DNA of 61,350 nucleotides, filler included, from Hausera hauseri (taxonomy: Eukaryota): NCBI GenBank assembly GCA_046269625.1. It is 7 parts of 7 records of this genome, joined end to end, with 100 filler letters (N's around TTAATTAATTAA, not from the genome) between each part and the next. Parts side by side here need not be neighbours in the genome. Positions count along the whole stretch, not along the records: positions 39,734 to 46,445 come from JBJURY010072661.1; 6 more parts are not named here. The stretch is one strand, 5' to 3'. Both the position numbers and the translations under genes were made by a program. A model generated the notes under the pieces. That model had not been told where the DNA came from, searched no databases, and was given only the letters and a program-made list of their open reading frames with translations. Shown piece by piece: positions 26,727 to 59,250 of this stretch. Each line of letters begins with the position of its first letter. Position 1 is the stretch's first letter.

Positions 26727-26732
26727 GATTTC

Positions 26733-26756: not shown

Positions 26757-26829
26757 TTGTAATAATAACAATAATAGTTAGTTGTTTTGCTTGTGTTATA
26801 AACAAAAATGATCATGTACATTATAAGTA

Positions 26830-28261: not shown

Positions 28262-30950
28262 TTATTCCCAACGCCAATGCCCGTACGCCCAAATCTTATT
28301 CTGCCCCTTTTAATTACGCTTATCATCATTGCATGATAAAGCGACTTGTATTTGTTACGGTATAAAGCTAATGCTCAATCGACCGGATGATCGTTTGTGA
28401 CACAACAGGCTTTGATTCTCCTTTTCCTCCTTCTTCTTCATAGATACGGCGATAATCATCGTGGCCGATTTCCGTCTGTCTCAGCTGAACTCCTCTTGCC
28501 AGAATTTTCGGTCCACAGTCCGTCAGAAGACTGTAGCACTTTGGACGTAGTAATATCCATTCCCGATATTGAACCCTTACTTTACTTTCATCCTTGAAGC
28601 ATCCGATTTTGTTGGTGATTGCGCTAACGTACAATGGATGATCCGGTGGATAGTTGGACGTGTCCAGTAGTCCATCTGCCATCATTTGCCGGAGCAGTTG
28701 GTCTCGATTGACATTATTCATCTGAAGGAAAAACTGTTTGTGTCACCGGCAACGATACTGATCTCACAGCCGTCAAACATTTGCTGGTAACGTGCCAAGT
28801 CGCGATACTGGCGTTCGTACATTCGCAACTTGCTCAGGTCTAATACCACTTGTCCGATATAGCTTGGTCGGTCCAGTACGACGTCTGCCCGGTTTAACAG
28901 CACGGAAACCAATCCATCGGCAATGTGCATTAACTGCATGAACTGAGCCTCGCTGGTATACGTAACCAGTTGTTTTTCATTGTTGCACACGCGCACATTG
29001 AGCCGCTTCTTCAAATTTTCTACTGTTTTTGTGTACAGTGACTTGTTTCTGAGCTTGTAATAGTCCTTTTCGAACTATGTACAAGCTGCGACTCGTTTCT
29101 CTGAATTTCCATCAATGTAGGTCTTGAATATCGGCGCCTGATTGAGGCGGATTGCACGATGCAGCTGTGTGACGCGTACACCAAGCTAAATGTAAAGCTG
29201 CAGTAGACGCAAATGAACCACGTAAATCAGTTTGGGTTCATGCGTCATGAGCAGTTTTTTTACTTTTGAGCCGGGTGAACACTGGCTGATTTGCGCCACT
29301 GGTAATTCTTCCAGAGCGTCATGCAGCTCATATGGTACCAAAAGTTCGACTTCCATTAGGTAGCCGACTGAGCTGCTTTCTCTCGTGTTTTCTGCTGCTT
29401 GCAGACTGTCCAGCAATGCGTCTAGTTCTTGTTTGTCAATATTAATATAGATGCACAACATTGACGTTGTATCATTGTCATCACTGGTTACATGATGCTT
29501 GTTGACAAATGTCATGCCGCCACGAATACCAACAACAATAGTCGGTACATTTTTAGGTCTTTCAAAAGCTCAATTTCCCTATCCAGCGACATTAGTGCCG
29601 ATGCCCAACTCATTCCTGATATAGAGTAAAAGTTTAGTGGCTCCAGCCTACCTTCAGCCAACACTTTCGCTCGAATCGCTTGGAACATATCGGCTAACAT
29701 GTATACCTCCAGTTTAAGATACTGGAGAATGTAGTACAACATGTTTCTACAGCCAACTTCCATGCATCACATTTGTGCATTCCGGTATTTACCCTCTTCA
29801 ATACCGAGCCATCGCAGCGGTAATTCTTTGTTGTCTGGAATCGCTCATACGATGTTGCAAAGTCATATCGGAATATGCCTTTGCTGCGTGCAATATGTGC
29901 GGGGAACTGCGTCCTTCCTATCGGCACATATGGCAAGGCATTTACCAACTTCGCCAATGATTTATTCAGGAACTGTAATGAGTCAAGAAACCGTACCTAG
30001 AACCGGTTAATACGAGTAGACAGTGACAGGTATTTCTTAATCGTAGTCGGAATTATGGATAGTTCTCAGTGCGGAAATCCGTTTATGCCCATTTTAAAAT
30101 ACGGTACAATAATAACCCCAGAAGTTATGAAAATCACCGGCAGGAATGGCCGCACACGCATTGCCAAATTGCATAAATTGCATGCTGCTCCCAAATATTG
30201 ACCGGTAAAATTGTTGTGATCCGGTACTAGTCGTTTCTGCGCATCAAACGGTAATATTTTGTGGCACAGATAACAATTATCTGTGACTTCAAACGTCAAG
30301 CGTTTATCTTCATCTGTCCACATTAAAGGTTTAAAGCTATTTCTATTGTACCAGGGTGCAATTTCCGTTTCTACTACTGTTTCAAACTGTTGCAGGAAAT
30401 GGCGTACACAATTCCATCCGTGAAAAACATAATATTGAAGTTGACGACCTGCGGCTTTCATTGGGATAACCAACATACCGAAGGCGATTGGAACATGTTT
30501 TTGGTCATATATGTTGTGCCGCGATAAGATAGCTTCGATATGAGCATATACTACATATGCCGGAATGTTTGTTTTTGACCAATCAGTGAACAGGAGTTCC
30601 TTTTTGATGGGCATGACATACATTGTAGTTCCCGATGAATTTTTTCTGCACAGAGTCACATGTTTCTCCAATGTTGTTTTCGACCTGAATCCATGCAGAC
30701 ATACAGGACACCATTTACAACGTAAACGTTTTTCGATGATATGGTCATGTTCCATATTCAACATTATGTCTAAATTTGTCACTGCAACGTAATGGTACGT
30801 TTCTTTTTGTTCCAGTAGCAACAAATTTACTAAGCAGCGGCCATTTGGGTTCCGACTACGATAAATTATATCCACATGATGATTTTTGTAAATTTCTTCA
30901 TCTGCTGGTATTTCTATAATTGTGTTGCACCGGAACACGTTGATTGCCAG
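28262..30950 (-). pseudogene. polB: Protein-primed family B DNA polymerase (pPolB) of Polinton type, multiply frameshifted
   Basis: Collinear motifs: zinc finger CPVCLHGF..LEKH..LC; YVVYAHIE (ExoI decayed); EndoVII-like DHNNFTGQYLGAACNLCNL; FHNFWGY; RFLDSLQFL; KGIFRYDF; YLKLEVYMLADMF; GIRGG; YYKLRNKSLYTK (motif B); GDTNS (motif C); DTSNYP; KIGCFKDE; LRPKCYS; LSCNDDKR; AYGHW. Confidence 0.93.
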
Positions 30951-33628: not shown

Positions 33629-34450
33629 TCAAATTTTGACTTTCTGTGATGTTGACGATAGCAGAAATGCATTACTGATGTTTCTGCTTACTTTCACAGC
33701 TATTTCGTGTAATTTCTGTAGGAGATGCTTATGGAAGTCATCTCCCTGATATTTCTGTCTCGGTTTAAGTAGATTATCTACTGGGAGGATGGGTTCACGT
33801 CCATATACCATTTCAAAAGGTGTGTATTTATGGCTTCCATTTCCATACATTGAATGACCATAGCTGCCTTGCTCAAGTGTAGATCCTACTCCTTGGGTTG
33901 GTCTTTAACATGTTTGCCCATTATTATGTTGTACAGGGTAGTGTGTTGTCTTTCATTAATTCTGTTTGCCCCTGGATTGTAGTGTGCCGTTTTGACGTGT
34001 TTGATGTTTAGTTCTTGTAATGTTTCCTCGAGGGCTCGGTTTACAAATTCGGTACTGTTGTCGGTGATTACAACCTTGGGACATCCGAATCTGGGTATGA
34101 AATGTCCTATCAAAATGTCTGTGATATTGTCAGCAGCCTTGTCCGGTATGGCAAAGAGTTCAGGCCAACAACTGTATATGTCGACAATGTGCAGTATGTG
34201 CTTATTGCCTGACAGTGTTAGTGGGTGCGGCCCTGACAGATCTAGGCTTATCTTCTTGAACGGGTATGCTGCATAATCTGGTTTTTGCATCGGGTGCTTG
34301 AGTATTTCGATCCCATGTAATTTACAGACTTCACATTTCTGTACATATTCCAGTAATACTTGCGATTGATAATTGATTGTGCCTGATCTCTACCGAGGTG
34401 TCCTAGGTCATCGTGATATTGTTGGATGACTTATTGTCATAAATATTGTG
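33629..34450 (-). pseudogene. Gypsy integrase
   Basis: ISLDLSGP, VDIYSCWPE, ITDNSTEF, YNPGANRINER, TPFEMVYGREP. Confidence 0.92.
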
Positions 34451-34598
34451 GGACACATTATTGCAACTCGCCTTGTCGGTTCAAACGGTATAAAATTTCA
34501 TCTGCTATAATGTATTGTGACCATTTATTGAGTTTATTTACATTGCCAGATTTCATATCTTTTATTATGCGTGTTAATTCCGTATCTTTAAGCTGTTC

Positions 34599-35381
34599 TT
34601 ATTTCACGTTGAATTCAGTCTCCTCTGTATCTGTTGGTTCCACTGTGATGTCGGTATCATACGTATTCTTGTTGTTTGAATTTATGATGGCAACTTGTAA
34701 TGTGTGGTTGTCTATCTCGGGTGTGCTATCTTTATCTGTCAGCGCTTGGTTATCCTTATTCTTATCAGGCATTCTTGACAGCAAATCGGCTACTGTGTTT
34801 TCTGGACCTGGGATATATTCTATTTGTGCGTCGTATCCCTGTAAGTTGATGCACCACTGTTGGATTCGACGGTTTTGAATATCTCCTTTCAGTAATGCTT
34901 TCAGTGGCATATGGTCTGTCTTGATGATAAACTTGCTATTATGGAGATAAAAATGTAATTTCTGTAGCGCATAGTGGATTGCATACACTTATTTCTCTGT
35001 GACTGACCACTTTCGTTGAGACTTTGTCAAGCGGTGGAACAAAAAGTAAATAGGTTTTTCTCTGGTTCTAAGTTTTCCATTGACCTGTTCAGTACCATCT
35101 TCTTGGGCTAGTACTGCTCCCATTGCATACTCTAATGCATCGGTATGGAGGATTTACTCTTTATTAGGGTCTGGGTAAGCCAATAATGGTACAATTGAGA
35201 GACTCTCCTTTAAATATTCGAAGGCTTTCTGGCATGTAGGTTCCCACTTGAATCTTTTGAACTTGCATGTCAATGCCACAATTTGTTCAGCAATTTGGGA
35301 AAAATTTGGGATAAAACGCCTGTAATATCCACATGTGCCAAGGAAACCACATACTTCTTTGGTGTTTCTAGGAGCAGCCAT
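34599..35381 (-). pseudogene. Gypsy RT connection and RNase H
   Basis: FLGTCGYYRRFIPNFS, LAYPD, HTDALEYAMGAVL, KTDHMPL, PGPENTVADLLSR. Confidence 0.92.
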
Positions 35382-35384
35382 GGA

Positions 35385-36179
35385 CTAGATTGCCTGTACC
35401 TTCTCACAATCGGTTTTAATTCCTTCTTGAGATATTACAAAGCCTAGGTATTTTGTCTCCTCTTTGAGAAACTTGCATTTTGACAGTTTTAACTTGACCT
35501 TGTGTTGACGCATGCGATCAAATACCTTTTCCACATGTTGTAGGTGGTCTTCGATGTTGGACTTAGTGAATATCAAAACATCATTAATATAGGTGAGGGC
35601 ATAACTTTGTAGACCTTCGAGCACGATATTCATAAGCGACATGTATGTGGCCGATGAACCTTTAAGTCCAAACGGCATCACATTCCATGCATAGCTTCTG
35701 GTGTGCGTGCAAAAGGCACTCTTCTCTTTCGCTTCCGGTGTCATAGGAATGCACCAAAATCCAGATCGTGCATCAAGTGTGGTGAAATATGTTGTCCCTT
35801 CTAACAAGCCCAATATGTCATCTATTAAAGGCATGGGATAAGATACATTTGTCGAGATGGCATTCAGCTGGTGATAATCCACACAGAATCTGTGGCTTCC
35901 ATCTTTCTTGGACACTATCACCACAGGGAATGACCATTCTGACCTGGTACATTCTATGATCCCATCACGTAACATCTCCTCAACCACCTTCTCCACTATG
36001 TCTTGGTTTCCCAGACGTGAAAGGTACGGTCTGAGACTTATCGGAGGATGGTTGCCTGTGTGAATTTTCATGGATACTGTCTGTGTTCGACCAAGCTCTG
36101 TCTCTGATATCGCAAACACTTCAGCGTGTTTAGTCACAAACTGTTGAATTCTCTCTTTGTGCTTGTCTTCAACTTTCAA
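35385..36179 (-). pseudogene. Gypsy reverse transcriptase (YxDD mutated to YIND)
   Basis: SEWSFPVVIVSKKDGSHRFCVDY, LDARSGFW, MPFGL, YINDVLIF, KYLGF. Confidence 0.95.
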
Positions 36180-36731
36180 AGTCTTGCTAATCCTTCCATC
36201 GGTCTGGGTAACTGCTACTACGACTGGTGTCTTGCTTCTTTAGCCACCATCCTTGTCTAATTTCTTGTAATGCTTTGTCTCGGTGTTGTCGTTTCTCTGA
36301 CAGTTTCATGTTTGCGTTACTGACCTCTGGTTTCTGCGGTTTCTTTTGTACGTTAGAGGTAGTCTTATTAAATAAGCATGTTTCAAAAACTTCAATGTGT
36401 GGTTTTTCTGCTTTAGTGATAACACATCCTTTGTTAGAGTAATAGTTTTTCCTGTATGATTCATGATCATAACTAGAGCCTGTCTTTTACTATTCAACTG
36501 CACGAGACCACACACAGTCTGTAGTCCAGGTTCATTGACTACTTCATGTTCCGCCAACGGTATTATATGAACATTTTCTCCCTGCTGCCAATAGTCATTT
36601 CGTTTCATTTCTGCTATTACTATGTTTATTGAATTGGGTTTCATTACTATCTTGTTTTTAACTCTGATAATCGAGGCAATGTGTACCACATCTTCGAGAT
36701 CCACATATTCACTGTTTATCCGTATCTTCTT

Positions 36732-37100
36732 TTAGTCAAAATAGATACATGCTTGGTGTCGATTAAAAAAATCTCTCCCGATGATAGCACTACGACTCAT
36801 GTTTCTTACGACCAAGAAGTTATGTGTCATCACTGTATTTCCGATGATGAATAGTAGCTTTGTTTCTCCCAAAACGTTCAGTTGGTTTCCAGATTCTGAT
36901 CGCAAATCAACCGATTGTTTAACTAACGGCCCTGGTTTCTTGATCATTTTAAATACTCTTTCACTGATAATGCTGACCTGCGCTCCCGTGTCTACCAAAC
37001 ATCTAACTTTGATCTTTCCAAAGTAGACAATGCATGAGCTTGGATCAGTGATGTAATTGATCTCGACCATGTGTCTGCTATTCTCTTCTGTAAACTTCAT
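36732..37100 (-). pseudogene. Retropepsin aspartic protease
   Basis: CLVDTGAQVSII ... AIIGRDF. Confidence 0.92.
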
Positions 37101-37122
37101 GGACGACTGACAGTTTCAAACT

Positions 37123-38922
37123 TTAGGGAGTGGACGTTGTAATGGGTGTGGTGTTATGGTGTGAACTTCCGTCTCTAATCACTTTGACCTTTCTACTTTC
37201 ATCCACTTCCATGGGCCCATATTCCTGTTGATTTTCATATCTCATTGTCTTATTTCTGGGATCTGCTCTATTTGGTGTTGCAACTTCATTTCTCTCATAG
37301 TTTCTGTGCTTGTTGTCGTATTTGGTCTTCTTTGGATTAACCTCTTTCTTCTCTGGTTCTTTTTGTAAGTTGTATTTCATCTGCCTTTTTGTGTACATTT
37401 TCCAGCTGTCTGCAGCATACCGTCGCTCCACTGGCCTGTCTGGGTCGTAATTGTTCAAATTCCGTTTGATCATTGACCTTCTGTGGTGTGGTTCTGTATA
37501 TTCATGGTCTCTACCATATTCTTTATGTGATCTGCGTTTTGATGAATTCCTGTGGTAATTCTGATTCTTGTTTCTTACAATACGTGTGTGCGCTTTCCCC
37601 TTGTGTCTGCTCTTATCTGTGTCATATAATCTTCTTTGTGTGTCTTGACCGTTTTTCTCTGACTTCACTTGCTTTCTATGTAAAGGCTGTCATGTATTTT
37701 CATTTATGCCATGTGTAGCTTCCATTAGTTACCTGCTCCGCCGAAAGCTCCTTTCGAAGCAGGGTACTCATTTCCCTGCTTCTCCTGATTGCTCATCTCT
37801 CTTCGTACATTATTGTTGTGATTTCTACAAAATTTGGTGAAATGCCCTTCTTTCCCACATATGAAACATTTTCTGTCATTTTGAGCTGAATTTCTCGATA
37901 AGGTTTACTGTGGCATTCTTTGGCTATGTGTCCATCTTTTCCGCACCGGTAACATCTGGTGTGTTTCTCTACTTCATGAATCATGAGCCTATGTTCATGT
38001 CATCTGTCTCGGTAACGTTTATACTCGGTGTGTCTTCCACGCCATTTATATCTATAATGGTCAACATCCATTTGCTCTTCGTCACATTCTATGGACTTCT
38101 CTCTACCTAATCTTATGTTTATTCATTTGCTGAAGTTTTCTTCATCAACGGCTGTATGGATGGCAGCTTGGATCGTTTTCAGCTCTTCTTTCATCAATTT
38201 AATTTTGATCCGAGTGTTTCTCAAACCATCGATAAAAATCGGGATCAGCAGTTGCCAATTTTTTCCGATAGCACGTCTTGACCTGCGTAAGCTTCTTCAG
38301 CCATGTTCAAAACTTTGTCATCATATAACTGAACAGGAATGTCTTTTTCTTGTCGTATTTTCCTCAGAGCCACAATAGCATATTGCATGTCGCTCACCTC
38401 GGTGTAACATTTGGCGAGAGTCTTCTTAAAGGCATCCCATGTTTTCTTGGGATGGGTGAGAAATCTACGCCTGACAAAGTCGTTTGCTAGTCCATCGGTG
38501 GTCATATAGGCTAGCTCTTTTTTCTCATCTTCCGTTGCCTTTATCATATAACTATATTTCTCGACCTGAGAAATCCATGTCTTGAATTGTCTGGTTTCCC
38601 ATCCATTAAAGGGTTGCACGAATGTTCTAACATTTTGATGTCTGCTATTCAGGTTGACTTTAGTCACCATGGTCTCGATTTTGTCGAGGGCCTTTCTTAT
38701 GGGATCATCTCGTCCAGCACTTGATTTTGGTGGGTGAGGTTTCGCTTCCCTACTGGTAGACTGACTGCTCAGTTGTAAGCTTTCTACCAGTTTTCTCAAT
38801 TCTTCCTTCTCTATGCGCGTGTTACTAAGTTCGGCCATAATGGTGTCCAGTTGTGCTTGAGGCACCATCACCAGCCGTTCACCGCTTCCTTCCGCCATAT
38901 TTTCTATCAAACTTTCTTCCAA
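37123..38922 (-). pseudogene. gag: Gypsy gag with two CCHC zinc knuckles
   Basis: Capsid-like PFNG..FKTWISQVE; MDVD/PMEVD motifs; CYRCGKDGHIAKEC and (shifted frame) CFICGKEGHFTKFC. Confidence 0.88.
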
Positions 38923-39230
38923 ATTGTGTATAAACTTCAGTCAATTTTCTTGTATTTTCCCTTACTTAATGTCAGTTCTGAAACTTAGAATTTTCTCCAT
39001 TGCTAACCACAAATGTTCAGTACATATACAGTCTAGTTAACCTTAGTACACATACAGTTTGGTTTTCGTTTGTAACACGTCTTTACACAATCTTGTCTAC
39101 ATATAGTATACTAAATAATATCAATATAATTACACCGATCTATGCTAATTCTCCAGTTAGATGTCTCTCTTAGACACTTTAGGTTGCTTTTCAGTGCTAT
39201 GCATCCTGTAGTCTGGCGTCGGTGACCGTA

Positions 39231-39733: not shown

Positions 39734-40578
39734 TACTCCACCGACCAAAATCGGTTCGGTGACATTCACGTAAATGTACATTTGACTTAGTCCAGTTTTC
39801 AGTTTGGGTTCAAGTGTTGCTGCCGCCTTCGTATTCGATGCCTCAAACCGCTGTTTTTCAAAACCCAATACCATGGCCAAAGCTTTATCTAAGGATATGT
39901 TAACAATATCCTTAGCCAGTTCAAATTTAATATACCCATTTGCATCTGACTCGAAAACTTTAAATATCGCTTTGTACTTTTGATTTGAAGAAAAGTGTTG
40001 ACAGAGTTGTGCTACAGATTCACAATAGACATTGTCCCCAATCGATGCGTATGATATTGATACCATTTCTGCTGTATAGGTAAATTTCACCGTTGTCTGG
40101 TAATATAAGGGACTTAATTTTATACCAACTACATATTCACTTTTAATGTGTTGACCTTTGTACTCAGTATTTTTGAATCCAAATTTCTGCACCATCTCAA
40201 AAGACGGAAAGATAACAGTGAATTTAAAATCTGATATAAAATGTAAGTTTTAATCTAAAATAAAAACACCAATTTGCCGTGTGAACCGTAATTTGCTTCG
40301 GTCGTGCAAATGGCCGATTTCTCAACTGTTATTTTATTGTTGGTAAGTGTCAGAGGACAAGAATGCGTTTTGGTTTCAGTAACAGTCTTGTTGTATGTTA
40401 TTTTTATACTACCTTTCAATGTCAACGGTGCGTAGGGAAAGTTAAATTCCGCCAGTGCAACCTCCCATTTTCCAGATAAATCCAAAGGATTGTTTCAGTC
40501 TACAGCGTATTCACTGGGGGAATTGTTCGGACGAGTCGTCGGACAACTGTTGCTCGGCAACATCATGTAAATACTCAT
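39734..40578 (-). pseudogene. Penton-like minor capsid protein 2 (cut by gap)
   Basis: MSIYMMLPSNS...NNPLDLSGKWEVALAEFNFP ... QMYIYVNVTEPILVGG. Confidence 0.82.
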
Positions 40579-40632
40579 GATCTCGATGAAGGAGATTATG
40601 ATGATTATGATAGTGATGACGCAGTTTGTTTA

Positions 40633-41686
40633 TTATCTACGACGAAAATGCAGCATCAAATGTGTCTTGGCTCCGAACAGAAATTTAATGGGTTTTGAAA
40701 ATTCGTATGCTATATACACGGAAATACTGTGCACAACATTGTGAGATAACGATAAATACATGGGCAGGATGATATTTACGTAAGCAGTTTTGCCAGGTGT
40801 TTTGTACTTGTCCGAATCCAGTCCAATAGAAGCCAATAGTTGTTTACGGTCTCCGCCAACATATACGGGTTTGGTTAGATCAGTTAAAATATCGATTCAA
40901 TGAAATGCTTCATAGAGACGTGGTTTGTGTTTAGCAACAATCGGCCGTCCGCCGCCACTGGTTTAACCAAATTCTTGTTTCTTAAAACCCAGATTCTGTG
41001 CCAATAGTTCATCACAGGTAAAATATGTAACATTATTATGCAGTGTAAACAAAATACGACCATTACAGTTTAATTCATATGTCTTGAGATCCAATTTAGA
41101 TACAATCCTGATGGTTGACACAATTCTGTTTCCCTTTCCGTAAGAAAACCAATTCCTGTTGTATGAGAGTAAAAGAATGATTCAGTCTTTTGCCCGTTTA
41201 CTGTAATATCGGTGGTTTTCGCAGTGGAAAAATTCAATTTTTCACTAATTATACTCTGTCCACCGAGCTGTAGACCTTTCGAGCGTACATAGGCAGATGA
41301 TTGAAAACCCTATGCTTGAGCGTCGACTAGTGTTTGAAATAGCAATTCAATCGGATGTTTGTGTTTTAGAACCAATCGGTTGTTTAAATGAAGAATATAA
41401 ACCGGGAAATATTGACGTTGGTAATTGCGAACGTGAAATGTTCCATTAGAGTCTCTGACTAACTGCAAATGACTAGATACAGGAGATTGTCTTACTAGAG
41501 TATAGTATATTCCACTGTTATCACGCATTGTTATTGGTGAAAATGTAAACAAGAATTCCGCCAAAGCCACTTCCTGGCTCCCTGGCGTAAGTCGAGCGGC
41601 TGGTCCAACGCCATGGTAAACCGATCAGCCGTATTGTTGTTGTCATGTTCCTATAATCTGTTTCTATAAAATATCAAATAAGTGCT
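40633..41686 (-). pseudogene. Penton-like minor capsid protein 1
   Basis: NNTADRFTMALDQPLDL..EVALAEF; TDLTKPVYVGGDRKQLLASI; C-terminal HLMLHFRRR. Confidence 0.82.
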
Positions 41687-41688
41687 CG

Positions 41689-42700
41689 TCACTCAATCTG
41701 CGATGCAAATATCCAACTCGGTGTAGTGTATCCGTGCCACTTGACGAGATATTGTTTATTCCAACCTTTTCCACGTGAACGTAGAATTTCATGAATACAA
41801 TACACATCAGGTTTTTCCGGTAGTACTTGCAGTTCCTGTTCGTAGAATTTACCACGTATTTCCTCACCGTTTTCATCCTCTAAAACGTACATGACACGTG
41901 TTTGTTTTGTGTTAATTGCTGAAATGCGGAAAACCTCGTTGCTCCAGTTCTGATTGAAATTTTTAATGAATGGCGTCGTAATTATTTTCGAAATACGTAT
42001 GTAAGCACCGATTTTATATTTTTGGCGTTTAATTGCCTGTCGTTGTGTTCGGTTTTGATAAAGCCACGTGTCAAAATCATCGATTACGTCAATCGGCTGT
42101 AATCCATTGATGCCACGATGTGTCGAATGATTGTATGCATGAATAATATCCGGCAATACATATACCCAGCGTTTGTTGCCTTGCTTCGTAAAGAATTTGT
42201 TTAGGCGACCGCGCAATGTTCGATTAAATCGTTCACCGAGTGCAGCCTTGTATTGCGAAAACATCGAGAAGTGGTTTACACCGAACCGCCTCAAAACCTA
42301 TGCGACATTGGATTTGTAAAATTCTTTACCAAAATCCGTTTGTACATGTATCGGCGGCTGTTGTTCAATTAACCTTTGAACAGCGTCGGCAATCTCTACC
42401 GCATTTAGATTTCACAGCAATTGCACGTGCAAAACGACTAAACACATCAATACATATCAGCACATTGATGCTGGCGTACGGAATCATTTCCATTAGATCC
42501 ACTTGCCATACGTAATTTACACCGGCAGCACGGTATGCACGAATTGGAAACCACCTTCTTATCGGTTTGTTTAGGCTGTATGCTAACTGTTTCCCCAGCC
42601 AACATAGGGTCTGTTGCCGAGTCTGTTTGACAGTCTGCCAGTTTGTCGATGCCAGTATATCCGATTTGATGACGCGGATCGAACCACACGTCGCCCATCG
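41689..42700 (-). pseudogene. Polinton retroviral-like (rve) integrase with C-terminal chromodomain-like segment
   Basis: WFDP..IGYTGIDKL; WQVDLMEM; CIDVFSRF; QTDFGKEF; ERFNRTL; YNHSTH; QNWSNEVF; GKFYEQELQ; YLVKWHGY; frameshifted. Confidence 0.92.
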
Positions 42701-42842
42701 TTGTCGCTGATGATGTCGTTTTTGTTTGCATTGCAGCAAATAGAACGAAATGTTAATAAAAGATTCGGTAAAGTGGGATAAAATGGTGAAAACCATGCAC
42801 CCATATCGCTACATCATCATATACATACCGTCATTGTTTATA

Positions 42843-43166
42843 CTAAACTTTACCACCAATAAGTCCACCCAGTAATGACGTGACAATCGGTAGAATTGCA
42901 CAAAGGAATCGGCCATCTTGCTGATACATGACCTCTCGTTTCAATTGTTTACTACGAGCGTTGGCAAGACCAATGAGTCATTTTCGATACTTCAGTAAAT
43001 TCCGCTTTCCCGTACCAATATCAACGTGACCCATAACGATATTGTACAAAATTTCCATCAAATCGTCTACTACAAATTGCGAAAATGATCGTAGCATGTT
43101 TCTCTTATGTCTCGTAAGTGCCTTGAGCAAAGCAATAAAGTACGGCTGACTACGTTTGAATCGCAT
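42843..43166 (-). pseudogene. Small basic Polinton protein with amphipathic C-terminal peptide (one internal stop)
   Basis: Reading through TGA at 42978 gives LIGLANARSKQLKREVMYQQDGRFLCAILPIVTSLLGGLIGGKV*. Confidence 0.7.
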
Positions 43167-43399
43167 TTTTGGACGTATTGATGCTGAGACGTAGATGTTT
43201 ATAACCGTTGCAACTGTGACGGTTATTTGCGTCTAGTTGCTGCTGTTTTTGTTCGAAGCACAGAAATGATTAATCGTTTGACTGTAGCGGTTCATTTTGA
43301 TACACGTTTCTTGCAGGACACACGCTTGGTAGGTTTACGTTTAACAATTGCTTTTCGGAAATTCTTCATTTTATCACAATCATGTCGTCGATTTTCGAA

Positions 43400-43725
43400 T
43401 TTGTTTAATGAAAATAACCGTAAACAACGGTGTCGTGCAATCTTCGTGAACAGTTGTTGAAGTCCAATTGTTTCGCGACTTCCTGAAATAAATCGTCAAT
43501 GACAATAACATCATTTTTCAGTAATCGTTCAGACCAGTTCGCATCAAACTCATCTGCTACTGTCAGGCCGGACTCTCCATCATCACCACTGTCCTGATGC
43601 CAGTAAATGTGACTGAACAGCGGCGATTGGAATGTCATGGTAGGTCTGCAGCAATTTGCAAAGTGCGTTTTGCCGCTTCCACTGGGGCCTACAATTTGGA
43701 AAATAGCACTATTCTGCAGCTTCAT
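43400..43725 (-). pseudogene. FtsK/A32-like DNA packaging ATPase, truncated
   Basis: Walker A IVGPSGSGKT, Walker B VIVIDDL, then LFTKIARHR in a shifted frame. Confidence 0.85.
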
Positions 43726-43802
43726 TTCGTTGATGATGCATTTCTCATACATTTTGTTTATAATCACACACACAGATAGGTGCAGCACGAACAGTTTCAA
43801 TC

Positions 43803-44261
43803 ATGATAGTCAATATCAACTATCGCGGACGTTACTGAGTGTATTAATGCACTGCCGTTAAGTCAATGCAAGCCGAGTCAGTATGTCCACAAATGTCCGC
43901 CGGATATTACATGCATCATATTTCCATCGGGTGTGTCGTATTATGGTTTGTCACAAACCAATCTCAAATTGTAGACAACTACCATTCGGAATTATCATTG
44001 ACCAAATTCAATCAATAACGGTAGCGGCTCAATTAGATTGCTCACCACCACCACCATCAATTAATCTGCACAAATTAGCAATGGCTACAGAATGTATTTA
44101 TGAGCCCGAACTGTATCCTACACTGCAACTAACACTATTACTCCCGCTTTGTCTATATGTTTAGCAGTGGAAAAATTGTCGTATTGGGGATTCTGTCAAT
44201 CAACTATGAGACGACTATTAATCAAATTAAACATCACAAATGTTTTACTGAATCAAACTAA
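43803..44261 (+). pseudogene. TATA-binding-protein-like gene
   Basis: Stitched frames: MIVNINYRG...CIIFPSG-CRIMVC...INLHKLA...YEPELYP...VYMFSSGKIVVLG; matches TBP repeat signatures (IFxSGK; YEPExFP). Confidence 0.75.
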
Positions 44262-44658: not shown

Positions 44659-45099
44659 ATGACTAATGGAATACAGAAACGAAAATTAAAACCCACGAAT
44701 CAAACACGGACATTTTTACCGACACGACGTTTTCGAAAGTATGAAATGCATTATCTGCAATCGCCCGTACAGATTTCATTGAATGATCCGGTGTTGTTGA
44801 TCACACCCAAGTACAGTTATCGTGTAAAGCAGCTACTGAGTAAAAATGTTGCGAAACTTGGTGATTCTTTAACTCAATTAAATATGGACTTAAAGTTGAA
44901 CGAAACGGCCTTACAACGGCAATATGTCGTTTTACCGGCGCAGAAAATGAAACTGTTTGATTTTAGCGGTCGTGAAATGCCTAATGTACCCGATGATTTA
45001 AAGTGTCGACTCAACATTGAATTAGAGGGATACAAAGAAAAAGACGGTATCAAAAGCCCGATTTGGCGTTTATCCGAAGCACGTTTTGATTATCAATAA
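44659..45099 (+). CDS. Polinton-associated hypothetical protein (146 aa), homologous to 27572-28003
   Basis: Intact ORF; AATAAA overlaps stop; shared motifs with 27572 ORF. Confidence 0.7.
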   Translation: MTNGIQKRKLKPTNQTRTFLPTRRFRKYEMHYLQSPVQISLNDPVLLITPKYSYRVKQLLSKNVAKLGDSLTQLNMDLKLNETALQRQYVVLPAQKMKLFDFSGREMPNVPDDLKCRLNIELEGYKEKDGIKSPIWRLSEARFDYQ

Positions 45100-45152
45100 A
45101 TATTGTTGTTTTAATTTTCTTCTTCAACAATGAGTATAAATATACACGTGTA

Positions 45153-45638
45153 ATGGGCTTTTCATTAATAATGATAATGAATGATGTAAAGATTATTTTG
45201 ACGGATGAAAGTGCTACTGCACCGAGATGTGTTACGACAAGTGCGGGCTACGATGTGTTTTCCAATGTCAATACGACAATTCCGGATAGCACAATCAAAT
45301 GCATAACAACTGGGATTCGATTGGCGATTCTACTCGGTTACAACGGCCAACTTTTATTGAAAAGCGAACTAGCAAAGCTCGGACTGACGGTTATTGGCGG
45401 CGTCATTGATTCAGACTTTCGTGGTGAAATTAAGGTGTTGCTGGAAAACCAATCCGGGGAACCGTATGCTTTTTCGAAGGGCAGTGCAATCGCACAAATC
45501 GTTTTTCTTCGCTGTGAAGAGGCGGGATTCAGTGTAATGTCACCGAAACAATGGGGATTGTTTTGCGTTAATGAATTGACACGAAATGAACGCAAAGAAT
45601 TCGGCTTTGGTGATGCGGACAAAACCACCTATGTTTAA
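45153..45638 (+). CDS. dut: Trimeric dUTPase (true start likely 45171 or 45177)
   Basis: Motifs AGYD, (LKSEL), GVIDSDFRGEI, IAQIVF, R...GFG; TATAAATA at 45135. Confidence 0.9.
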   Translation: MGFSLIMIMNDVKIILTDESATAPRCVTTSAGYDVFSNVNTTIPDSTIKCITTGIRLAILLGYNGQLLLKSELAKLGLTVIGGVIDSDFRGEIKVLLENQSGEPYAFSKGSAIAQIVFLRCEEAGFSVMSPKQWGLFCVNELTRNERKEFGFGDADKTTYV

Positions 45639-45712: not shown

Positions 45713-46206
45713 ATGGCGACAGGATTTAGAGATATTGAAGCTTTCCAAGATGATAATGCCCGGTACATAATAAAGAAATTATGCATTATGGTCGTCAGTA
45801 ACATTTTCAAACCGCTTGTGTACGTATTCAAGCCCTCCGTTATGTGGAATCAATTGACAGAAAAGGCAAAAATTACCAATGGATATCTTATGGACTTTAT
45901 GGACTTTATTGGAACGAAGACAGTTCAACGTTTTGCGTATCATGTATCATGCGAGGCATTTGTGATCGTTTTGACATTGAAAATACAATATTTTACATTA
46001 AAAACCAAATTGACGGACAAAAATTTACACAACTCCATTCACAGCTTCCCGCGTTGCGAATGACGACGTATTCAACAACAACATCGAACAGCTCGCTGGC
46101 GATGGTACTTAACAATATTATATGTCGATATCGTGATCATGGACCGAATTGTACTTACAGAAAATGTCTACGGCTTTTATTGACTATATTTCATGCTAAT
46201 AAATAA
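45713..46206 (+). pseudogene. Polinton accessory DnaQ/DEDD-like gene (copy 2, frameshifted)
   Basis: MATGFRDIEAF..YIIKKLCI; YGLYW; CRYRDHGPNCTYRKCLRL; DNA similar to 26830-27312. Confidence 0.6.
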
Positions 46207-46545: not shown

Positions 46546-47110
46546 GTAGAACAATTTCGAGACGTCATGCGAAAGATCGAAAAACTTCGTGAAGTGGACA
46601 ACGAGGAAGGACTATATGCAGTAGAGTCGCGACCATATAAAGAGCGAGGTACAGAAAGGACACATCAGAGTAAGAATTTTGGACAGAGTCATGCACCGCT
46701 GTCTTACGCAAGTGTGGTCCAACAAAAAGCGCATAACGTATATGGTTGGAACAACAAACGAGCAACAAGATGACAGCCGGCTGAGAAACAGAAACCACAA
46801 ATCAGGTTCCAAAAACAGAATGCTGGCATTGCCACATAGAAGGACATATCAGAAGAGACTGCCCAATAATAAACAAAACAAAGGGCATAGGCAGACTTTG
46901 CTACGCATGCCACGAAGAAGGCCACATTCGGAAAGACAGCCCATATGTAAAATGCCTGCACTGCAGAAGGAACGGGCACCTGGGATCGCAGTGCTACCAG
47001 AGACGCCGTGAACAACGAGAATACACGACGAATGCGATCTATCGCGATGTGCAATACGATGAATATACCGACTTCTTCAGACCCACGAAAGAGTCGATCG
47101 TTAAACGATA
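46546..47110 (+). pseudogene. gag: gag C-terminus with three CCHC-type knuckles
   Basis: CWHCHIEGHIRRDC, CYACHEEGHIRKDS (last C lost), CLHCRRNGHLGSQC. Confidence 0.85.
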
Positions 47111-47212
47111 TCCACGGCCACTTAGTGTTTCGTCGTACGACTGTACATCCGATAATGAAACGAACCTATCGGGAAACGACCGTACTCCCCTGTCAAGAAA
47201 GACAGAGGGAGC

Positions 47213-48230
47213 ATGCTAAGTAACTCAGTTATTGAACCTTATCTACAAAGTGGGTTTTGGCAAATCCCAATGGCCGAAGAAGACCGATGGAAAACCGCAT
47301 TCAAGACTCACACCGGAGTCTACCAATTCACTCGTATGCCATTCAATTTAAAAACAACACCCATATTTTTCAAAAATTTATTCGCCTGGTGTTAAAGGGA
47401 GTACGAGGTTTATCATACATTGGTGACATTCTCATCGCATTCAAGACATGGTCTGAGTATTTAATAGAATTAAGAAAAGGGTTTGATCAAATTAGACTTG
47501 CGAAATTAAAGTTAAATCCGAAAAAAATGTGAATGCGCAAGAAGGATGTTAAATATCTAGGATTTGTTGTTTCAAACCAAGGAATTTCGACCAGTCCTGA
47601 TTTAATATCCCAAATATTAGAATATCGCCACCAATAAATGTGCACGAAATGAAGACTTGGTTAGGTCTGGGAGAATTTTATCCCACGTTTATACCTGACT
47701 TTGCAGAAATTAACCAGCCTTAATATAAGCTCCTAAGAAAGGATCAAAAATGGGAATGGACAGAAGAGAATCAAAACGCATTTGACGAGATTAAAAAAGG
47801 AATGGTATCAGCACCTATATAGAGATACCCAGATTTTTCATTACCATTCATTCTGAAAACCGATGTTAGCATAAAAGCTATTAGTTATATATTAGCCCAG
47901 CAAAATCCAGAAGAAACAACTGAGCACGTAATCGCCTACAGAGGACGTAGCTTAAATAATGCACAACGAAAATACTCAACCACTGAATTGGAGTTACTTG
48001 CCATTCGAGATGGATTGCGACATTACGAGTATTACGTTTATGGTCATAAAATCATGATATTTACTGATCATAAAACACTCTTATCTCTACGCTCCGACAA
48101 TAGACGTGTATCAAGTCGAATCCAAAGGTGGAAGTTGGAACTTTTGAATTATGATTTTGAATATCGATACCGTCCTTGAAAAGAAAACATAGACGCCTAT
48201 GCACTTTCGAGAATGCCTTACAAAAAATAG
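47213..48230 (+). pseudogene. RT and RNase H (protease and part of RT N-terminus deleted)
   Basis: MLSNSVIEP fused directly to LQSGFWQI; RMPFNL; YIGDILI; KYLGF; KTDVS; YSTTELELLAI; FTDHK. Confidence 0.9.
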
Positions 48231-48499
48231 TAGCTGCAGTTTATAAACCATTAGATAATGAGAAGGATAAACAACTGAATGAAAAAATTATTAATGATAT
48301 GTTGCAAGAAAAACGTCAAATCCAAGTACGAAATATCGAGACCTTACAAAACCAAGATCCCTTTATTTTTCTAATCAAACAATTAATCAACGGACAATTA
48401 CTTGACTCAATATCAAGTCACATTCAAAAGTTTTATGAAAAAAAAAACAAGAAAATATTGAAATCGAAAATGGCATTTTACGACTAAGAGTCGGAGAAA

Positions 48500-49570
48500 G
48501 AAAATTGATCCTTGTACCACATCAGCCATTAAGGCTGTCATGCTACAAAACACGATTAACACCTGGCTGGACATCCATCTTTAAACAAGACTTTGAAGCG
48601 TATAACCTCAAAATATTACTGGCCTCAAATGAATAAACACATCGATGGATGGGTACGTTCATGTAAAATATGTGCTACAAGAAAAGATAGAGGATTTCGT
48701 GCAAAACCGTTTTAGGAAGCTTACCCGAAGCACGGAAACCAATGGAATTGTGCTCAATGGATATCTCCGGACCCCTCCCAACTTCAGACTAAGGATACAA
48801 ATATATACTTTCATTTGTTGACTACTTTTCTCGTTTTATTGTGTTGGTACCATTAAAAAACATGACAAGTAGTACAGATGCTAAAGCCTTTTTTATGAAA
48901 TTCTTACTGTAGTAGGCACCACGAAACAGTTGTTAACTGACCATGCACCATACTTCATTAGAGACTTCTTCGAAAAGTTGTCAAAAATATTCTAGTGCAA
49001 ACATTTGTTAACGACATCATATCATCCACAATGTAATGTTATGATCGAAATAATGAATCGTACCATTCAGGGCATCCTTTCTACAAAGGTAGCAAATGAT
49101 CAAAAGGATTGACATAACCATTTGAAAACTACGGCCTTTTCAATTATTACCACGCCCACCAAGAGTATCAATAATTCACTTTTTGAGTTAATGTTCAGAC
49201 GATTACCTTTACTACCATTAGATACGAAATTACTACCATCATTCTTGTTAACCAGTGACCACATGGATGATCAATACCAGATTTTGTTAAAACGACTCGA
49301 CTATTTTTAATGAGAAGCAAAACAGTGTGAAGAAAAATACAAAGCCGGATATAAGAAACAATTTAACAAAAAGGCACGACCACATATTTTTAAGATTGGA
49401 GAGTATATAATGGTTCACTACCCTGCGATGAAGAAAGGCAAATAGTTAAAATTAACACGCACAGGTCAAGGACCGTACAAAATTGTTGATGTGAGCCCAC
49501 AAATACTTTTTATTCAGAAAGGACTTGATAAATATGAAACTGTATCTGTTCAACGAGTAACCCGAGCACC
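48500..49570 (+). pseudogene. Gypsy integrase with GPY/F module
   Basis: AGHP, YYWPQM, CKIC, SMDISGPLP, VDYFSRF, LTDH, YHPQCN..IE, GPYKI. Confidence 0.9.
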
Positions 49571-49591
49571 TACATCATATAACGACTTCAT

Positions 49592-51182
49592 ATGCGAAGC
49601 AGAGCTAGAATCACCAAAGATAGAGAGTTCAAAGTAGCAGCAATGTGCAAAATTCACTCGATGAATACCTCAGAACATTACCATGTTTACTTCATCCTGA
49701 GACGATACTTGGCTATCTTTTTCCTCATTTTTCTAGCATTCGTAATACCTATTACGGCTACAAATACCCATACATCAACTATATCACTTACTCAATTGAT
49801 TGAACGCGTTACTATTATCAATATTGAAACACATAAACCTAGTATTTGCCTTAGAACTCACTTGTCTGTAATAATGCGCCATAAAGTTTATTTTGTCTTT
49901 ACATCACAGTATAATCTCTCCATAGTTTGCACAATTCTTGAAACACGTATTAAAACCTGCTGTTTAGTCAATTACGTAATGACTATACACACTAAGTAAT
50001 ATTGAAGGCAAACAGTGCCAACATCACCATGTGGAAACCAAATATAATTCTACACATCCCTGCTTATAATGAGATGAACATATTGAAAACTTCTGATGTC
50101 TTTTTGCGTAATCCTTTTATTGTCCGATTTCTAGAACACAATATTGAAATTTCTAGTATCGATATCACAACACAACCTCCCTGTATATATTTTCGCACCA
50201 CACATTTATTACCCTACAAATTCGAAATCAGCATATGGCTCGAGCCAATCCCTACTCCCATAACACAACCTCATTATTGTTACCTTAAGAGAAATAACAC
50301 TCGTTCATGTTGTACACCCTATCCGTACATATGGTACCGAATTCGTTTAGATGCATACCAAACGCGAGAAAATAGACAATCAATTAGAGTGTATTGTCAC
50401 CGCATTCCTATTTTATTTTCAGTTAAACCAAACATACTCATTCTAGCTTTTGCCAAACAGCACTTTACGTCTCCGCAATCTGTGAAACAGATGATAACAC
50501 CGAGATTAAGGATCACACCCACGGTTAAAGGTAGGGGAGATCAAAATCAAAGTCCCACATTAAAACCACAATTTCAGCTCAAACTACAAAACCAGATTAA
50601 AATACAAGTTCAACGGCCATATACACTGAAACAGAAATTGCATAAACATATATTTTATGGAAAATGGATGAACGAATTTCCTATCAAATTCAAATTAACG
50701 CCCTATATGGACCGCATTGAGATAATATTTCAAAATATAATAAATGAACGAAACGTTGTGGTAACATGTACCGGTTCTCATGAAAGGTTACTATCAAATA
50801 CGAGGCAAATAAAAGAAACTTTTGTGAAAAACTAACGCCAGATACCAATTATTTGGTGAGTATAGGGATCTTAGATAACTCAAAAATTGTGGCTATAAAA
50901 AGACAACCAGCAGTAAATCATTATCGCCACATAAGGTATAATGACGACGACGAAAAATGGAAATTAACTGCTGCTTCGACAAGAACTACCGAAACATATA
51001 TTCTACAATTTTGGTGGATATTCGTATTAATAGCAGGTGCCGGTATAATTATTATGATGTCTATTGCATTGGGCAATAAACCTAGGTGTAAAAAGAAAAT
51101 ACATTACGAATCACACTACTCTATAATTAGAGGCAATCAACCTTGCCTACAATTGAGTAAAATTGAGGAACAAGAGAAATAG
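49592..51182 (+). pseudogene. Putative env-like type I membrane glycoprotein split into three ORFs (49592-49999, 50002-50835, 50853-51182)
   Basis: N-terminal hydrophobic segment YLAIFFLIFLAFVIPITA; sequons NLS/NIT/NNT/NQS; Cys residues; C-terminal TM FWWIFVLIAGAGIIIMMSIALG followed by KPRCKKK; located directly after integrase. Confidence 0.55.
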
Positions 51183-51321
51183 AAAACGTACAGTTGCAAA
51201 CACGATAACAAGTAGTGAAGAGAATATTAATGAAACGACACGTACTACGTTTTGTCTTGTGCCTATCTTGATCTTTAGACTAGTTAATAAAGAATTTTGT
51301 AGCTAACTCAAAGAGAATCTG

Positions 51322-51576
51322 ATGAATTACATACTCGTGTCAAGCATAATGCTCGGACCAATTATGTTCGTTTATACAGTTTATAAATTAATAGCCAATG
51401 AGATGATAATCAAAAATCTTGGAAATTTGATTAGTTGGCTTATCACATTAGACTTAAAAGAACATAAATACGATGTGCAACATCAACAAGACGAAAAAAA
51501 ACATGGAAAAAAATTTTGTGGTCAAGCTCCACAATTCGGAAGCACCCAAACAACAAACTTAGCTTCAAAAGTTTAA
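51322..51576 (+). CDS. Small ORF with N-terminal hydrophobic helix (possibly N-terminus of the next ORF)
   Basis: MNYILVSSIMLGPIMFVYTVYKLI. Confidence 0.35.
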   Translation: MNYILVSSIMLGPIMFVYTVYKLIANEMIIKNLGNLISWLITLDLKEHKYDVQHQQDEKKHGKKFCGQAPQFGSTQTTNLASKV

Positions 51577-51669
51577 AGAATAGATGGTTTCAAGCGACCA
51601 AATGCGGTTACAACAAAAGATGAGTGGGAGGATAACGGAATACAGAAACTTAGTACAGCCAGAAAGAAT

Positions 51670-52482
51670 ATGAAATATTCCTTCTATGACAAATTATTAG
51701 AACATTTGGATGGTTCAGAAGATCGCATCAGTGAAGTTACCAGAATACCCAATGGACTTAAATACGGGGAGCAACGAAATCGAGAGATACTGCCTTTCAA
51801 GATATTTAATTCTGAGACTACATTTAGACTTCCTCAGTGGACTTCAAATAACTTAGGTATAACCATTCATATTGCCGTAGGAAAAGTCATGGCAGTATTT
51901 AGAAAAATTAAAGAAAGAAAAAACGGATTAGAAATAATAACAGGTCAGGAATCCTGCCAAATCAATTACCCAGTGGATCCAACACGTACTCGACTTATAG
52001 CCAAAGAAATATTGAATATCGGAATGATTGAAATCTTCAGAGCCGAAAAGGAACTTCCAGTATTACTACCTTTGAGATACAAAGTTGAACCGGCGGAAAG
52101 GGAGATGTTGGAAGAACCAAACATTTTATACACTAATAAATCAAATAGTACTCGATGTGGCCGATCTTTCGCTTACAGACACAAATCCAATGGATCGCAA
52201 GTTCCACTTCCAATTGAAATAATTATTGCTGAAAGATACGGAGAAATCATATTCAACCAGATAATAGCTCCTAGAAGAACCACTCATAACCTAAGTAACA
52301 TAAAACATGGAATAACTTGGGATAAAATTGAGAATAGCAAGGATTCTCGAGTGGTTCAGAATGAAACTCAGAAATATATCCTAGGATATAAAATAGTGAT
52401 ATTGCAGGCCCACAAAACTTTTAAGGCTTTGTGCATCCCAGTAAACAAGGCCTCCACAATCTTTGACCCATTAAAAATGTGA
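51670..52482 (+). CDS. Accessory ORF with C-terminal REX4/ISG20-like (DEDDh) exonuclease-fold domain, catalytic residues apparently lost
   Basis: IIIAERYGEIIFNQIIAP...HGITWDKIENSKDSRVVQNETQKYILGYKIV...KTFKALCI parallels the REX4-family pattern VSIVN..GEV.YD.YVKP...SGIT...L..A..F..VQ.EV..LL.G.ILVGH...DL.AL. Confidence 0.6.
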   Translation: MKYSFYDKLLEHLDGSEDRISEVTRIPNGLKYGEQRNREILPFKIFNSETTFRLPQWTSNNLGITIHIAVGKVMAVFRKIKERKNGLEIITGQESCQINYPVDPTRTRLIAKEILNIGMIEIFRAEKELPVLLPLRYKVEPAEREMLEEPNILYTNKSNSTRCGRSFAYRHKSNGSQVPLPIEIIIAERYGEIIFNQIIAPRRTTHNLSNIKHGITWDKIENSKDSRVVQNETQKYILGYKIVILQAHKTFKALCIPVNKASTIFDPLKM

Positions 52483-52890: not shown

Positions 52891-53250
52891 AGCAATGTGA
52901 ATTACATCAGTTTGGGTCGGAATGCGGATTTCGTTGAGACATACAAGCAGGATTTCGAGACCGGTGACAATGTTTGTACATATATGCAATCTATCGTGCG
53001 CAACATGGGTTTGCTAAACAAAAATATCAACAATGGCGTATCAATGGATTTGATCTAGTGCACCTATCCATTCTTCACCTTTGTCCTGGCTCCGGATTAT
53101 GACGTTGAACAGACTCAATTACTTCAACAGGGAAACTTGAGACTGGAGGTTCACTTTGCTAAAGCGTTGGAGCAATCTACCGTGATGCACATTTACGGTG
53201 TATTTGATGCCGAGGTTGAGGTAACGAAAAACAGAACCGTCATTGTATAA
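52891..53250 (+). pseudogene. Polinton major capsid (hexon-like) C-terminal 120 codons; absent from ORF track
   Basis: Single frame: NVNYISL...YKQDFE...NNGVS..*..FFTFVLAPD...QQGNLRLEVHFAKAL...IYGVFDAEVEVTKNRTVIV*, with AATAAA at the stop. Confidence 0.85.
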
Positions 53251-53327
53251 ATAAAATCCGCTGCGTTTCACCTTTTCTTCGTCTTCATTGTACTACGAAG
53301 TAATCTATTTCGATAACTACTACTATT

Positions 53328-53704
53328 ATGCTTAATTCACATTTTACATTTAGCTCCACTGAGCTTAGTCACTAAGAAAAACTGCTCTTGGGCGCGAAAT
53401 TTCGTGACATGTTTTCACTTGAGTGTGTGCCGCGTGATTTACGATAAACTGGTGGATTTATTGTCAATATACAAACTTCATCTTTGCCGGGAGAACATTG
53501 GATTGCTGTGTACGTCCATCCGACAATCGTCAGAGTATTCAATCCGCTCGGATTTTACTATCCATCATCGTTAGCTTCTCAAACTGAAAGGCAGTCATTA
53601 TCTCCATACAGCGTTGAATATAATAGACTTCATTATCAACATCAATGATTATACTATGTGGACAATACTGCTTATTGTGCCTTACATTACAATCACTTTT
53701 GTAA
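53328..53704 (+). pseudogene. Adenain-like (peptidase C5-type) cysteine protease; absent from ORF track
   Basis: FRDMFS...FIVNIQTSSLPGEHWIAV...VFNPLG...YN...Q...CGQYC; His and Cys present, Asp position is Asn; several stops. Confidence 0.85.
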
Positions 53705-58239: not shown

Positions 58240-59250
58240 TTTTCAACTTTATAAGGGCCTTTCCACGGATGGGTTAATTTTGGGGACTTACCTTTTTTAC
58301 TGCCGGTTCCAGTAGCATCACTAAGTCATCTTGTTTAATTGAATGAGGACGTGCCTTTTTATTGCAATTATCCTTACATGTTTTCTGGTAATCAAGTGTT
58401 AATGATTGCGTCAAGGCCCACGCTTTTGTCAACCGTTCTTTCAAGTATTTTATATAACTTAGCTCATATTTCGTCAAAGTCTCATCTGGAATTATTTTCA
58501 GATCTTTCGGCAGTAGGAGATCACGTCCATACATAAGGAAGAATGATGGTTGTTGAGTGGCTGTATATGGTGCAGTTCGTAACGCTACATACATGCTAGG
58601 ATAAACAAGTCCCATCATCTTGCTTATCATCCGTTACCGTTGCCAACATTGATAACAATGTGCTGTTTAATCGTTCGATCATACCGTCACAACAGGGGTG
58701 ATAAGCTGCGGTTTTGAGCTTATACAACAAACAACCGACAAACTTCTTGAAACATCTTATTTATAAATTCCGTTCCTTGGTCTGTTAATATTTTATTGGG
58801 AGCACCGTACTTGAACACTGTTTCCTCGACAAATAATGCTGCAACAGCAAAAGCTGATTTATTAATAATTGGAAACGCCTCCGGGAACCTGGTCAAGTAA
58901 TCGACAAACACCAATATGTACTGGTTCCCACTTTGCGTTTTTGGTAGCGGCACGATTATGTCCATCGTTGAAAATTCCATTGAACTCGCTGGTGGTGGTA
59001 TCGGATGTAGTGGGGACTTACATTTGTATCCCCTATTCCGCCTTGTCGCACATCTTACAACTTGCACACCATTGTTCAACGTCATTTTGAACTGTGCGCC
59101 AGTAATATTTTCGTTTAATTCGACCCAAGGTCCTGTATGCAGGATTGCCTGCCAACAAACCGTCAAGTTCCCATTGCATAATCTTGACTCACCAGGATTC
59201 TTGTATTGCTACTAGTTGCCAATTATTGTGCCAGTAGCGTACTAATTAAG
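58240..59250 (-). pseudogene. Gypsy integrase
   Basis: KYYW, MDIIVPLP, VDYLTRFPEAFP, LTDQGTEF, YHPCCDGMIER, FFLMYGRD, WKGPYKV. Confidence 0.92.

Follow-up and report, generated by a model that had tools for sequence, protein, structure and literature searches.

Polinton-type elements related to a fragment in the genome of Hausera hauseri encode a reduced protein predicted to fold like TATA-binding protein (TBP). The patterns described below make it probable that this protein is an early-made factor that reads a variant TATA box, YATAAAC[AG], at late promoters and recruits host TFIIB and RNA polymerase II (Pol II). Chances are about even for a larger claim: that a wide clade of animal Polintons has a private late switch, built on one minimal TBP of altered specificity, a box poorly used by host TBP, a direct plug-in to host TFIIB, and a regulatory lobe shed stepwise, which would together amount to an orthogonal TBP-promoter pair of natural origin and to the smallest TBP known to work. 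The sequences themselves show a gene family set among Polinton genes and held under purifying selection, a residue pattern, and a box with a gene-class bias, whereas the fold is predicted. The DNA analysed (the window) is 61,350 nucleotides long, filler included (GenBank assembly GCA_046269625.1); analyses that go beyond the window's own copy of the gene were done on intact homologues.

A broken TBP-like gene in a Polinton fragment

The gene, which encodes a reduced TBP-fold protein of a short subgroup, lies at 43803..44261 on the plus strand (ATG at 43803, TAA at 44261) and is broken into four pieces by three frame changes, near 43833, near 43933, and at 44151-44165. An earlier note on this DNA had quoted TBP signature motifs here, and they are present. 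The longest stop-free piece matched the Pfam TBP profile at E 0.012 (15.9 bits, under the 22.9 cut-off) and gave weak matches against the PDB; taken alone, the window copy is suggestive of TBP identity, not conclusive. With the same piece as query, one intact natural homologue was found (P0001; 160 residues, 66% identity, E 1.8e-20). Mapped back onto the window, P0001 accounted for three of the four pieces at 61-70% identity (E 1e-34), and the first ten codons were covered by a related locus. Four positions that are invariant in the family are changed in the window copy, which is therefore very probably a dead pseudogene, as are its neighbours. One sequencing run, its kind unrecorded, contained 9780 contigs at 80-99% identity to the stretch, with all 30 bins covered; this suggests many diverged copies, and the run may be the window's own source. 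Among the runs listed as containing the stretch, none was of RNA.

By its gene content, the surrounding fragment is of Polinton/adintovirus type. On the gap-free contig at 39734-46445, the genes of the minus strand are a broken packaging ATPase of A32/FtsK type (43200..43725, lower end approximate; tblastn 49% to the locus ATPases), a small conserved gene, F4 (42846..43166; one member gave a weak match to adenovirus pX, E 0.005), a broken rve integrase of retroviral type (41695..42808; Pfam rve 23 bits, below the cut-off; 58% to a locus integrase), and two broken F7 genes (39734..41142; no library match). From its gene position, we take F7 to be a putative minor capsid (penton) protein. The ATPase of a relative, L012, matched Pfam Pox_A32 above the cut-off. 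Downstream of the TBP-like gene, on the plus strand, are F3 (44659..45096), a dUTPase (45090..45638; Pfam E 7.5e-21), and F2, a broken conserved element gene with no Pfam match (45725..46179). F3 is likely an OB-fold single-stranded-DNA-binding protein (SSB) by fold matches that are middling (Z 7.1-7.5 to Enc34, T7 gp2.5, and ASFV CP312R; Foldseek E 0.045), and it adjoins a short TBP gene in 22 loci. Because F3 models as an OB fold, a role for it as a TBP cofactor was no longer considered. Pieces of PolB, major capsid, and protease genes lie on other contigs of the window, and the only repeats found in the window in place of terminal repeats were those of gap filler, the element being cut by gaps.

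Two other contigs also carry Polinton material. A second fragment (26628-30890) comprises the start of F7 together with F2, F3, and a broken PolB that most resembles the one in L023; this F2 has a TATAAACA box of its own at 26797. The end of a major capsid gene and a protease gene lie at 52894-53639.

A metagenome scan found 173 relatives, and 80 loci were kept. At least one Polinton core gene was present in 36 of the 80, loci without core genes being mostly too short, and in 18 of the 21 loci of at least 4 kb. The TBP-like gene occurs with all Polinton core genes, protease excepted, in L012, L023, L062, L066, and L072; the identity given to the major capsid rests on a Pfam DJR protein that it matched modestly by profile (probability 67.5, E 5e-5). 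Related elements widely carry the TBP-like gene, contrary to an absence from other copies of the family. Its head-to-head arrangement with the packaging ATPase, to which the earlier note had drawn attention, holds in the window, where about 77 nt separate the two starts, but is not conserved in relatives: among 26 loci that carry both, the pair shares a strand in 24 and is divergent, with intervening ORFs, in 2. The layout was rejected as a conserved autoregulatory device on that count. Across these loci gene order is variable, and the head-to-head layout is local.

An intact family under purifying selection

The Pfam TBP search fell under the cut-off for the broken window piece but succeeded with intact proteins (P0001, 59 bits; L012, 63; L062, 57). 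Sequence matches of P0001 to solved TBP structures began at E 2e-14. Relatives of P0001 numbered 240 among 251 candidates; a representative search returned 106 proteins at E <=1e-10, most among the matches listed being of the P0001 type, and the clusters returned by an Atlas search were of the TBP domain only. Family members are mostly 135-195 residues long. A model of P0001 built from 113 aligned relatives had a pLDDT of 95.3, and among the Foldseek matches listed, 44 had E <0.001, all of them TBP entries. In the VIA superposition, residues 1-148 of the model were placed on human TBP 164-337 with Z 13.2 over 145 residues (rmsd 2.6 A), and the top-scoring structure other than TBP reached Z 6.3. 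The family is predicted to form a two-lobed saddle that spans the whole TBP core. An element-encoded TBP-fold factor, as claimed before, is well supported by the Pfam match, the model, and the superposition, with the P0001 model matching the TBP fold.

Both half-repeat signatures that had been read from the window are present, but the first repeat is not a full one: in the P0001 model the C-lobe is complete and the N-lobe keeps its strands with no helix of at least 4 residues (DSSP). Both N-lobe segments are deleted in the short subgroup, where the spans are 36 and 30 residues as compared to 47 and 43 in canonical TBP; in the long subgroup both are present but divergent (44 and 40 residues). 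The comparison of long and short forms hints at a stepwise loss of N-lobe segments. The subgroup labels are author-assigned, and L077, labelled long, clusters with the short forms. Long forms (L060-L080) go with PLA2 and a Pfam-type PolB, short forms (L001-L059) with a divergent PolB.

Nei-Gojobori dN/dS was below 0.5 in 38 of 40 computable pairs, with a median of 0.17 (45 pairs, 5 not computable); by this measure the gene is under purifying selection. In phylogenetic trees a single branch separated the family from 14 canonical TBPs (support 100/98; 99 in the other tree); these trees have long branches, include no animal TBP or TRF2 rows, and do not allow a donor to be named. A test of the family as one clade with P0264 gave p-AU 0.455. 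Scans of viral contigs with P0001, the capsid alignment, the L086 capsid, and P0264 returned no matches. A scan with A1 returned a single contig of 44 kb (L081), which carries a TBP of canonical type, and a scan with A3 returned two distant elements (L082, L083) that were kept out of the controls described below.

A variant TATA box before virion genes

Box counts were made on 256 de-duplicated upstream regions of 150 nt, with L081 and regions shorter than 60 nt left out. ATAAACA and TATAAAC ranked top in unbiased k-mer counts. The consensus YATAAAC[AG], which takes in TATAAACA and CATAAACG, was found in 116 of the 256 regions, as compared to 4 on the antisense strand and a mean of 7 (largest 14) in shuffled sequence; 65 of 126 matches start 30-49 nt before the ATG, and the first base of the box is C in 32 of 97. 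TATAAAC differs by one base from the canonical box, TATAAAAG.

The box is common before ATPase (22/23), F4 (15/17), integrase (11/14), penton (8/13), major capsid (9/10), PLA2 (10/12), pX-like (6/6), protease (3/6), F2 (17/24), and LRR (5/5) genes, and is scarce before TBP (0/62), SSB-like (2/18), zinc finger (0/8), F10 (0/6), and PolB (1/3) genes. Taken together, the virion, packaging, and integrase genes have it in 84 of 101 cases and in 33 of 36 loci, this "late" class having been grouped after the per-gene counts were seen and taking in F4. The two subgroups have it in common (42/51 and 42/50). Before TBP genes, the canonical TATAWAWR occurs in 25 of 62 regions as compared to 10 expected. 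CCAAT also seemed enriched there by eye and was found not to be (20/62 as compared to 14.9).

Three TATAAACA boxes lie on the minus strand of the window fragment. The first (43755..43762) starts 37 nt ahead of the ATG of the ATPase, within the 77 nt that separate this start from that of the TBP-like gene, and overlaps the sole TATA-like word before the TBP-like gene; the second (43196..43203) lies 37 nt before the ATG of F4; the third (42835..42842) is ahead of the integrase, the true start codon of which is unclear in this decayed copy. The box occurs 14 times in the whole window, with 11 expected by chance, and only its position is telling.

Control elements were fetched by ATPase or integrase search. 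One of them, L085, was found to carry the family TBP, and the box precedes 3 of 4 genes there. In seven loci without a TBP match, which represent about five elements, none of 28 virion, packaging, and integrase genes has it, and a 22.9-kb element with a different TBP and its own TFIIB has it at none of 6 genes. The controls come to about five independent elements, each of them partial and more distantly related, so that box and gene may simply have been inherited together; a Fisher test is invalid for rows that are not independent. The controls are consistent with a link between box and TBP. Before the late genes of the TBP-negative L084, L086, and L087, other TATA-like words, such as GTATAAGACG, were seen. 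The Polinton contigs of L084-L088 come from bins of bacterial genomes, in which they are evidently contaminants of eukaryotic or viral origin.

The different TBP, at L094:3778-5042 (22.9-kb contig G004:C86, also L088), scored 44 bits with Pfam and lacks the acidic loop considered below. Adjoining it is a TFIIB (27.2 bits, above the cut-off) with a zinc ribbon and 24 relatives, several of which are on 20-24 kb contigs. With its distinct TBP and its TFIIB, L094 represents a further class of Polinton-type element. The scan that found this TFIIB detected none in the family loci, as covered by 127 of the 193 ORFs on 19 partial loci and by 34 family representatives.

The DNA face and the partner-binding surfaces

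Residues are numbered as in yeast TBP, with the offset checked on a plant TBP (P0195), and DNA-contact positions follow Table 1 of PMC12529657. The intercalating phenylalanines F116, F190, and F207 are each present in 113 of 113 relatives. The position of F99, the fourth of the canonical set, is a proline in 112 of 113 relatives and in all 69 locus proteins, and the mode of DNA kinking must therefore differ. P191 is kept. Elsewhere on the DNA face, V71 is replaced by N (111/113), V122 by R (111), N159 by S (111), V161 by T (104), I194 by R (113/113), and L205 by N (113/113); T124 is replaced by M as well. The same pattern recurs in the 69 locus proteins of both subgroups, with the exception of I194, which is variable in the long one. 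On this evidence, the DNA face of the family is rebuilt and polar. The altered-specificity mutant TBPm3, as described in PMC1636458, is changed at three positions, among them I194 and L205; the equivalence of the third, V203, is ambiguous (C113 by MAFFT, V114 by HMMER and hhalign).

According to PMC7221094, TFIIB binds the acidic loop of TBP, and TFIIA, TAF1, Mot1, and Brf bind the basic patch of the N-lobe. The loop is kept: the equivalent of E186 is present in 111 of 113 relatives and that of E188 in 113 of 113 (67/69 and 68/69 in locus proteins). The N-lobe helices with the basic patch are missing in the short subgroup. The Polinton protein otherwise resembles cellular and archaeal TBP (PF00352; PDB 7egb_P, 1ytb, 1mp9) in its two-lobed saddle, predicted here at full length, and in the retention of F116, F190, P191, F207, and the E186/E188 loop; it differs in its length of about 145-170 residues, in the proline at F99, and in the change of hydrophobic DNA-face residues to N, R, S, and T. 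It is a TBP superfamily member that lacks two features of canonical TBP.

A proposed late switch and its alternatives

We propose the following course of events. The TBP-like gene would be transcribed early, by host TBP, from a canonical, host-type TATA promoter. The rebuilt polar face of its product would then read the variant box, with the altered N-lobe facing the altered 3' end of the box (C at position 7); the published orientation on TATA, in which the C-lobe lies over the 5' half and the N-lobe over the 3' half (PMC1636458), sets the most altered lobe over the altered base. The kept E-P-E loop would recruit TFIIB, presumably that of the host, given that the scanned ORFs gave no match to a viral TFIIB. 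Without its N-lobe helices the protein would be free of TFIIA, TAF1, Mot1/BTAF1, and Brf, and this freedom would confine it to Pol II and shield it from eviction. The outcome would be an early-to-late switch by one protein of 150 residues, with the virion, packaging, and integration genes as its targets. Two functions had been put forward in the earlier note, redirection of host Pol II to element promoters and a TBP decoy; the YATAAAC[AG] box and the kept acidic loop appear to give real support to the first and none to the second. Counting against a late factor are the loss of F99 and the boxes that start with C despite the kept P191, a residue said to demand a 5' T (PMC1636458), as does the occurrence of the box before F2 and LRR genes too.

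We consider it unlikely that host TBP or a host paralogue instead reads the box as a weak TATA, with the element protein binding DNA in another capacity, such as to repress early promoters or to act at the termini during replication or packaging. A crystal of wild-type TBP with a C(-25) variant of TATA is on record (title of PDB 1qn3), and given that crystal and the single base that separates TATAAAC from the canonical box, host TBP itself may read TATAAAC. The frequent adjacency of short TBP and likely SSB genes (the 22 loci above) and the overlap of the window's ATPase box with the sole TATA-like word before the TBP gene would also suit a host-read box. It leaves unexplained why the TFIIB-binding acidic loop is near-invariant and why the box is absent from TBP-negative elements and from all 62 TBP upstream regions.

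Distinctly unlikely is a late-promoter factor that requires a further element-encoded partner, as do herpesvirus ORF24 and the elements with both TBP and TFIIB. In most cases a viral TBP is accompanied by a TFIIB that is also viral (PMC7221094), both are present in one Polinton-type control, and several small neighbour genes belong to no Pfam family. Against such a partner, the scanned ORFs of these partial loci gave no TFIIB match, the neighbour genes differ between subgroups, and the acidic loop is host-like here but lost in the TBP that comes with its own TFIIB.

A decoy, titrating host TFIIB or occupying host promoters and so dampening host transcription, we regard as very unlikely. Retention of the TFIIB loop in a protein that has dropped its regulator-binding lobe would suit a dominant-negative role; a decoy, however, needs neither a conserved, rebuilt DNA face nor a matching box before element genes. 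That the gene is a passenger, a decayed host TBP or TRF copy landed in the element by chance, would fit the broken window copy with its lost invariant residues but is scarcely credible, being largely refuted by the many intact relatives, their dN/dS, the Polinton context, and the branch against canonical TBPs (100/98, in a tree with no animal TBP or TRF2 rows).

Comparison with known systems

The proposed late switch has its closest working analogue, of a different family, in the TBP mimics of herpesvirus late promoters (KSHV ORF24, EBV BcRF1; TATTWAA box), as described in PMC12529657. Shared are a viral TBP fold, a variant TATA box before virion genes, and the use of host Pol II; V122, V161, and L205 are polar there too (Table 1 of that paper). 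By the same account, ORF24 differs in its 752 residues, its direct binding of Pol II, its need for five other viral factors, its retention of all four phenylalanines, and a modelled incompatibility with TFIIB. The Polinton protein is by comparison a bare core with the TFIIB loop kept, and the lengths of family members are not those of the large, multi-domain proteins of ORF24/BcRF1/UL87 type with their six-factor complex. BcRF1 was a weak structural match to the P0001 model (E 0.004). Matches to viral structures (BFVD) were weaker than those to solved TBPs.

Nucleocytoviricota with TBP-like factors usually encode an RNA polymerase too. As reported in PMC7221094, these factors likewise have a TBP fold encoded by the virus, and the regulatory surface of their N-lobe has diverged; they are mostly without the acidic loop and are paired with a viral TFIIB. 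Their identity to the Polinton protein is 8-20%, and its best sequence matches were cellular TBPs.

The family loci share PolB, rve integrase, packaging ATPase, adenain, and capsid genes with the adintoviruses, Polintons, and Mavericks described by Starrett et al. (2021; PMC8502044), and PLA2 in one subgroup of loci only. In the parts consulted of the text and supplement map labels of that paper, TBP is not among the genes described for animal adintoviruses. The earlier placing of TBP outside the Polinton core set needs one qualification: the only mention found for related elements is a label in the legend of Fig. 5 of PMC8502044 (preprint 10.1101/697771), which refers to MELD elements, is accompanied by no analysis in the text consulted, and may or may not concern the same family. 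In the parts consulted of PMC12220804 and bioRxiv 2022.05.25.493380, nothing relevant was found.

Whether Polintons still make virions is a long-open question, and to our knowledge the timing of their gene expression is essentially unknown. A dedicated factor with a defined late box, if confirmed, would allow early and late genes to be classified from sequence, offer a handle for reporter assays, and mark entry into the virion-making phase. It would also extend the viral-TBP late switch of herpesviruses and giant viruses to elements of 15-25 kb, by a route that is seemingly separate and far simpler. The family may serve as an experiment of nature on which losses TBP can bear while still functioning, and as a candidate orthogonal TBP-promoter pair for synthetic use.

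Other features of the window

Six 100-bp gaps, each filled with TTAATTAATTAA, begin at 25503, 31070, 39634, 46446, 52791, and 56980, and adjacency across them is not reliable. Positions 1-25502 are a tandem satellite with a 48-bp unit in about 530 copies and higher periods of 96 and 144 bp. Three broken LTR retrotransposons, with pieces of gag, protease, RT, RNase H, and integrase, lie at 33889-38940, 46785-48900, and 58723-60787. Four plus-strand ORFs (132-301 codons) occupy 49583-52479; neither Pfam nor NCBIfam gave a convincing match for them.
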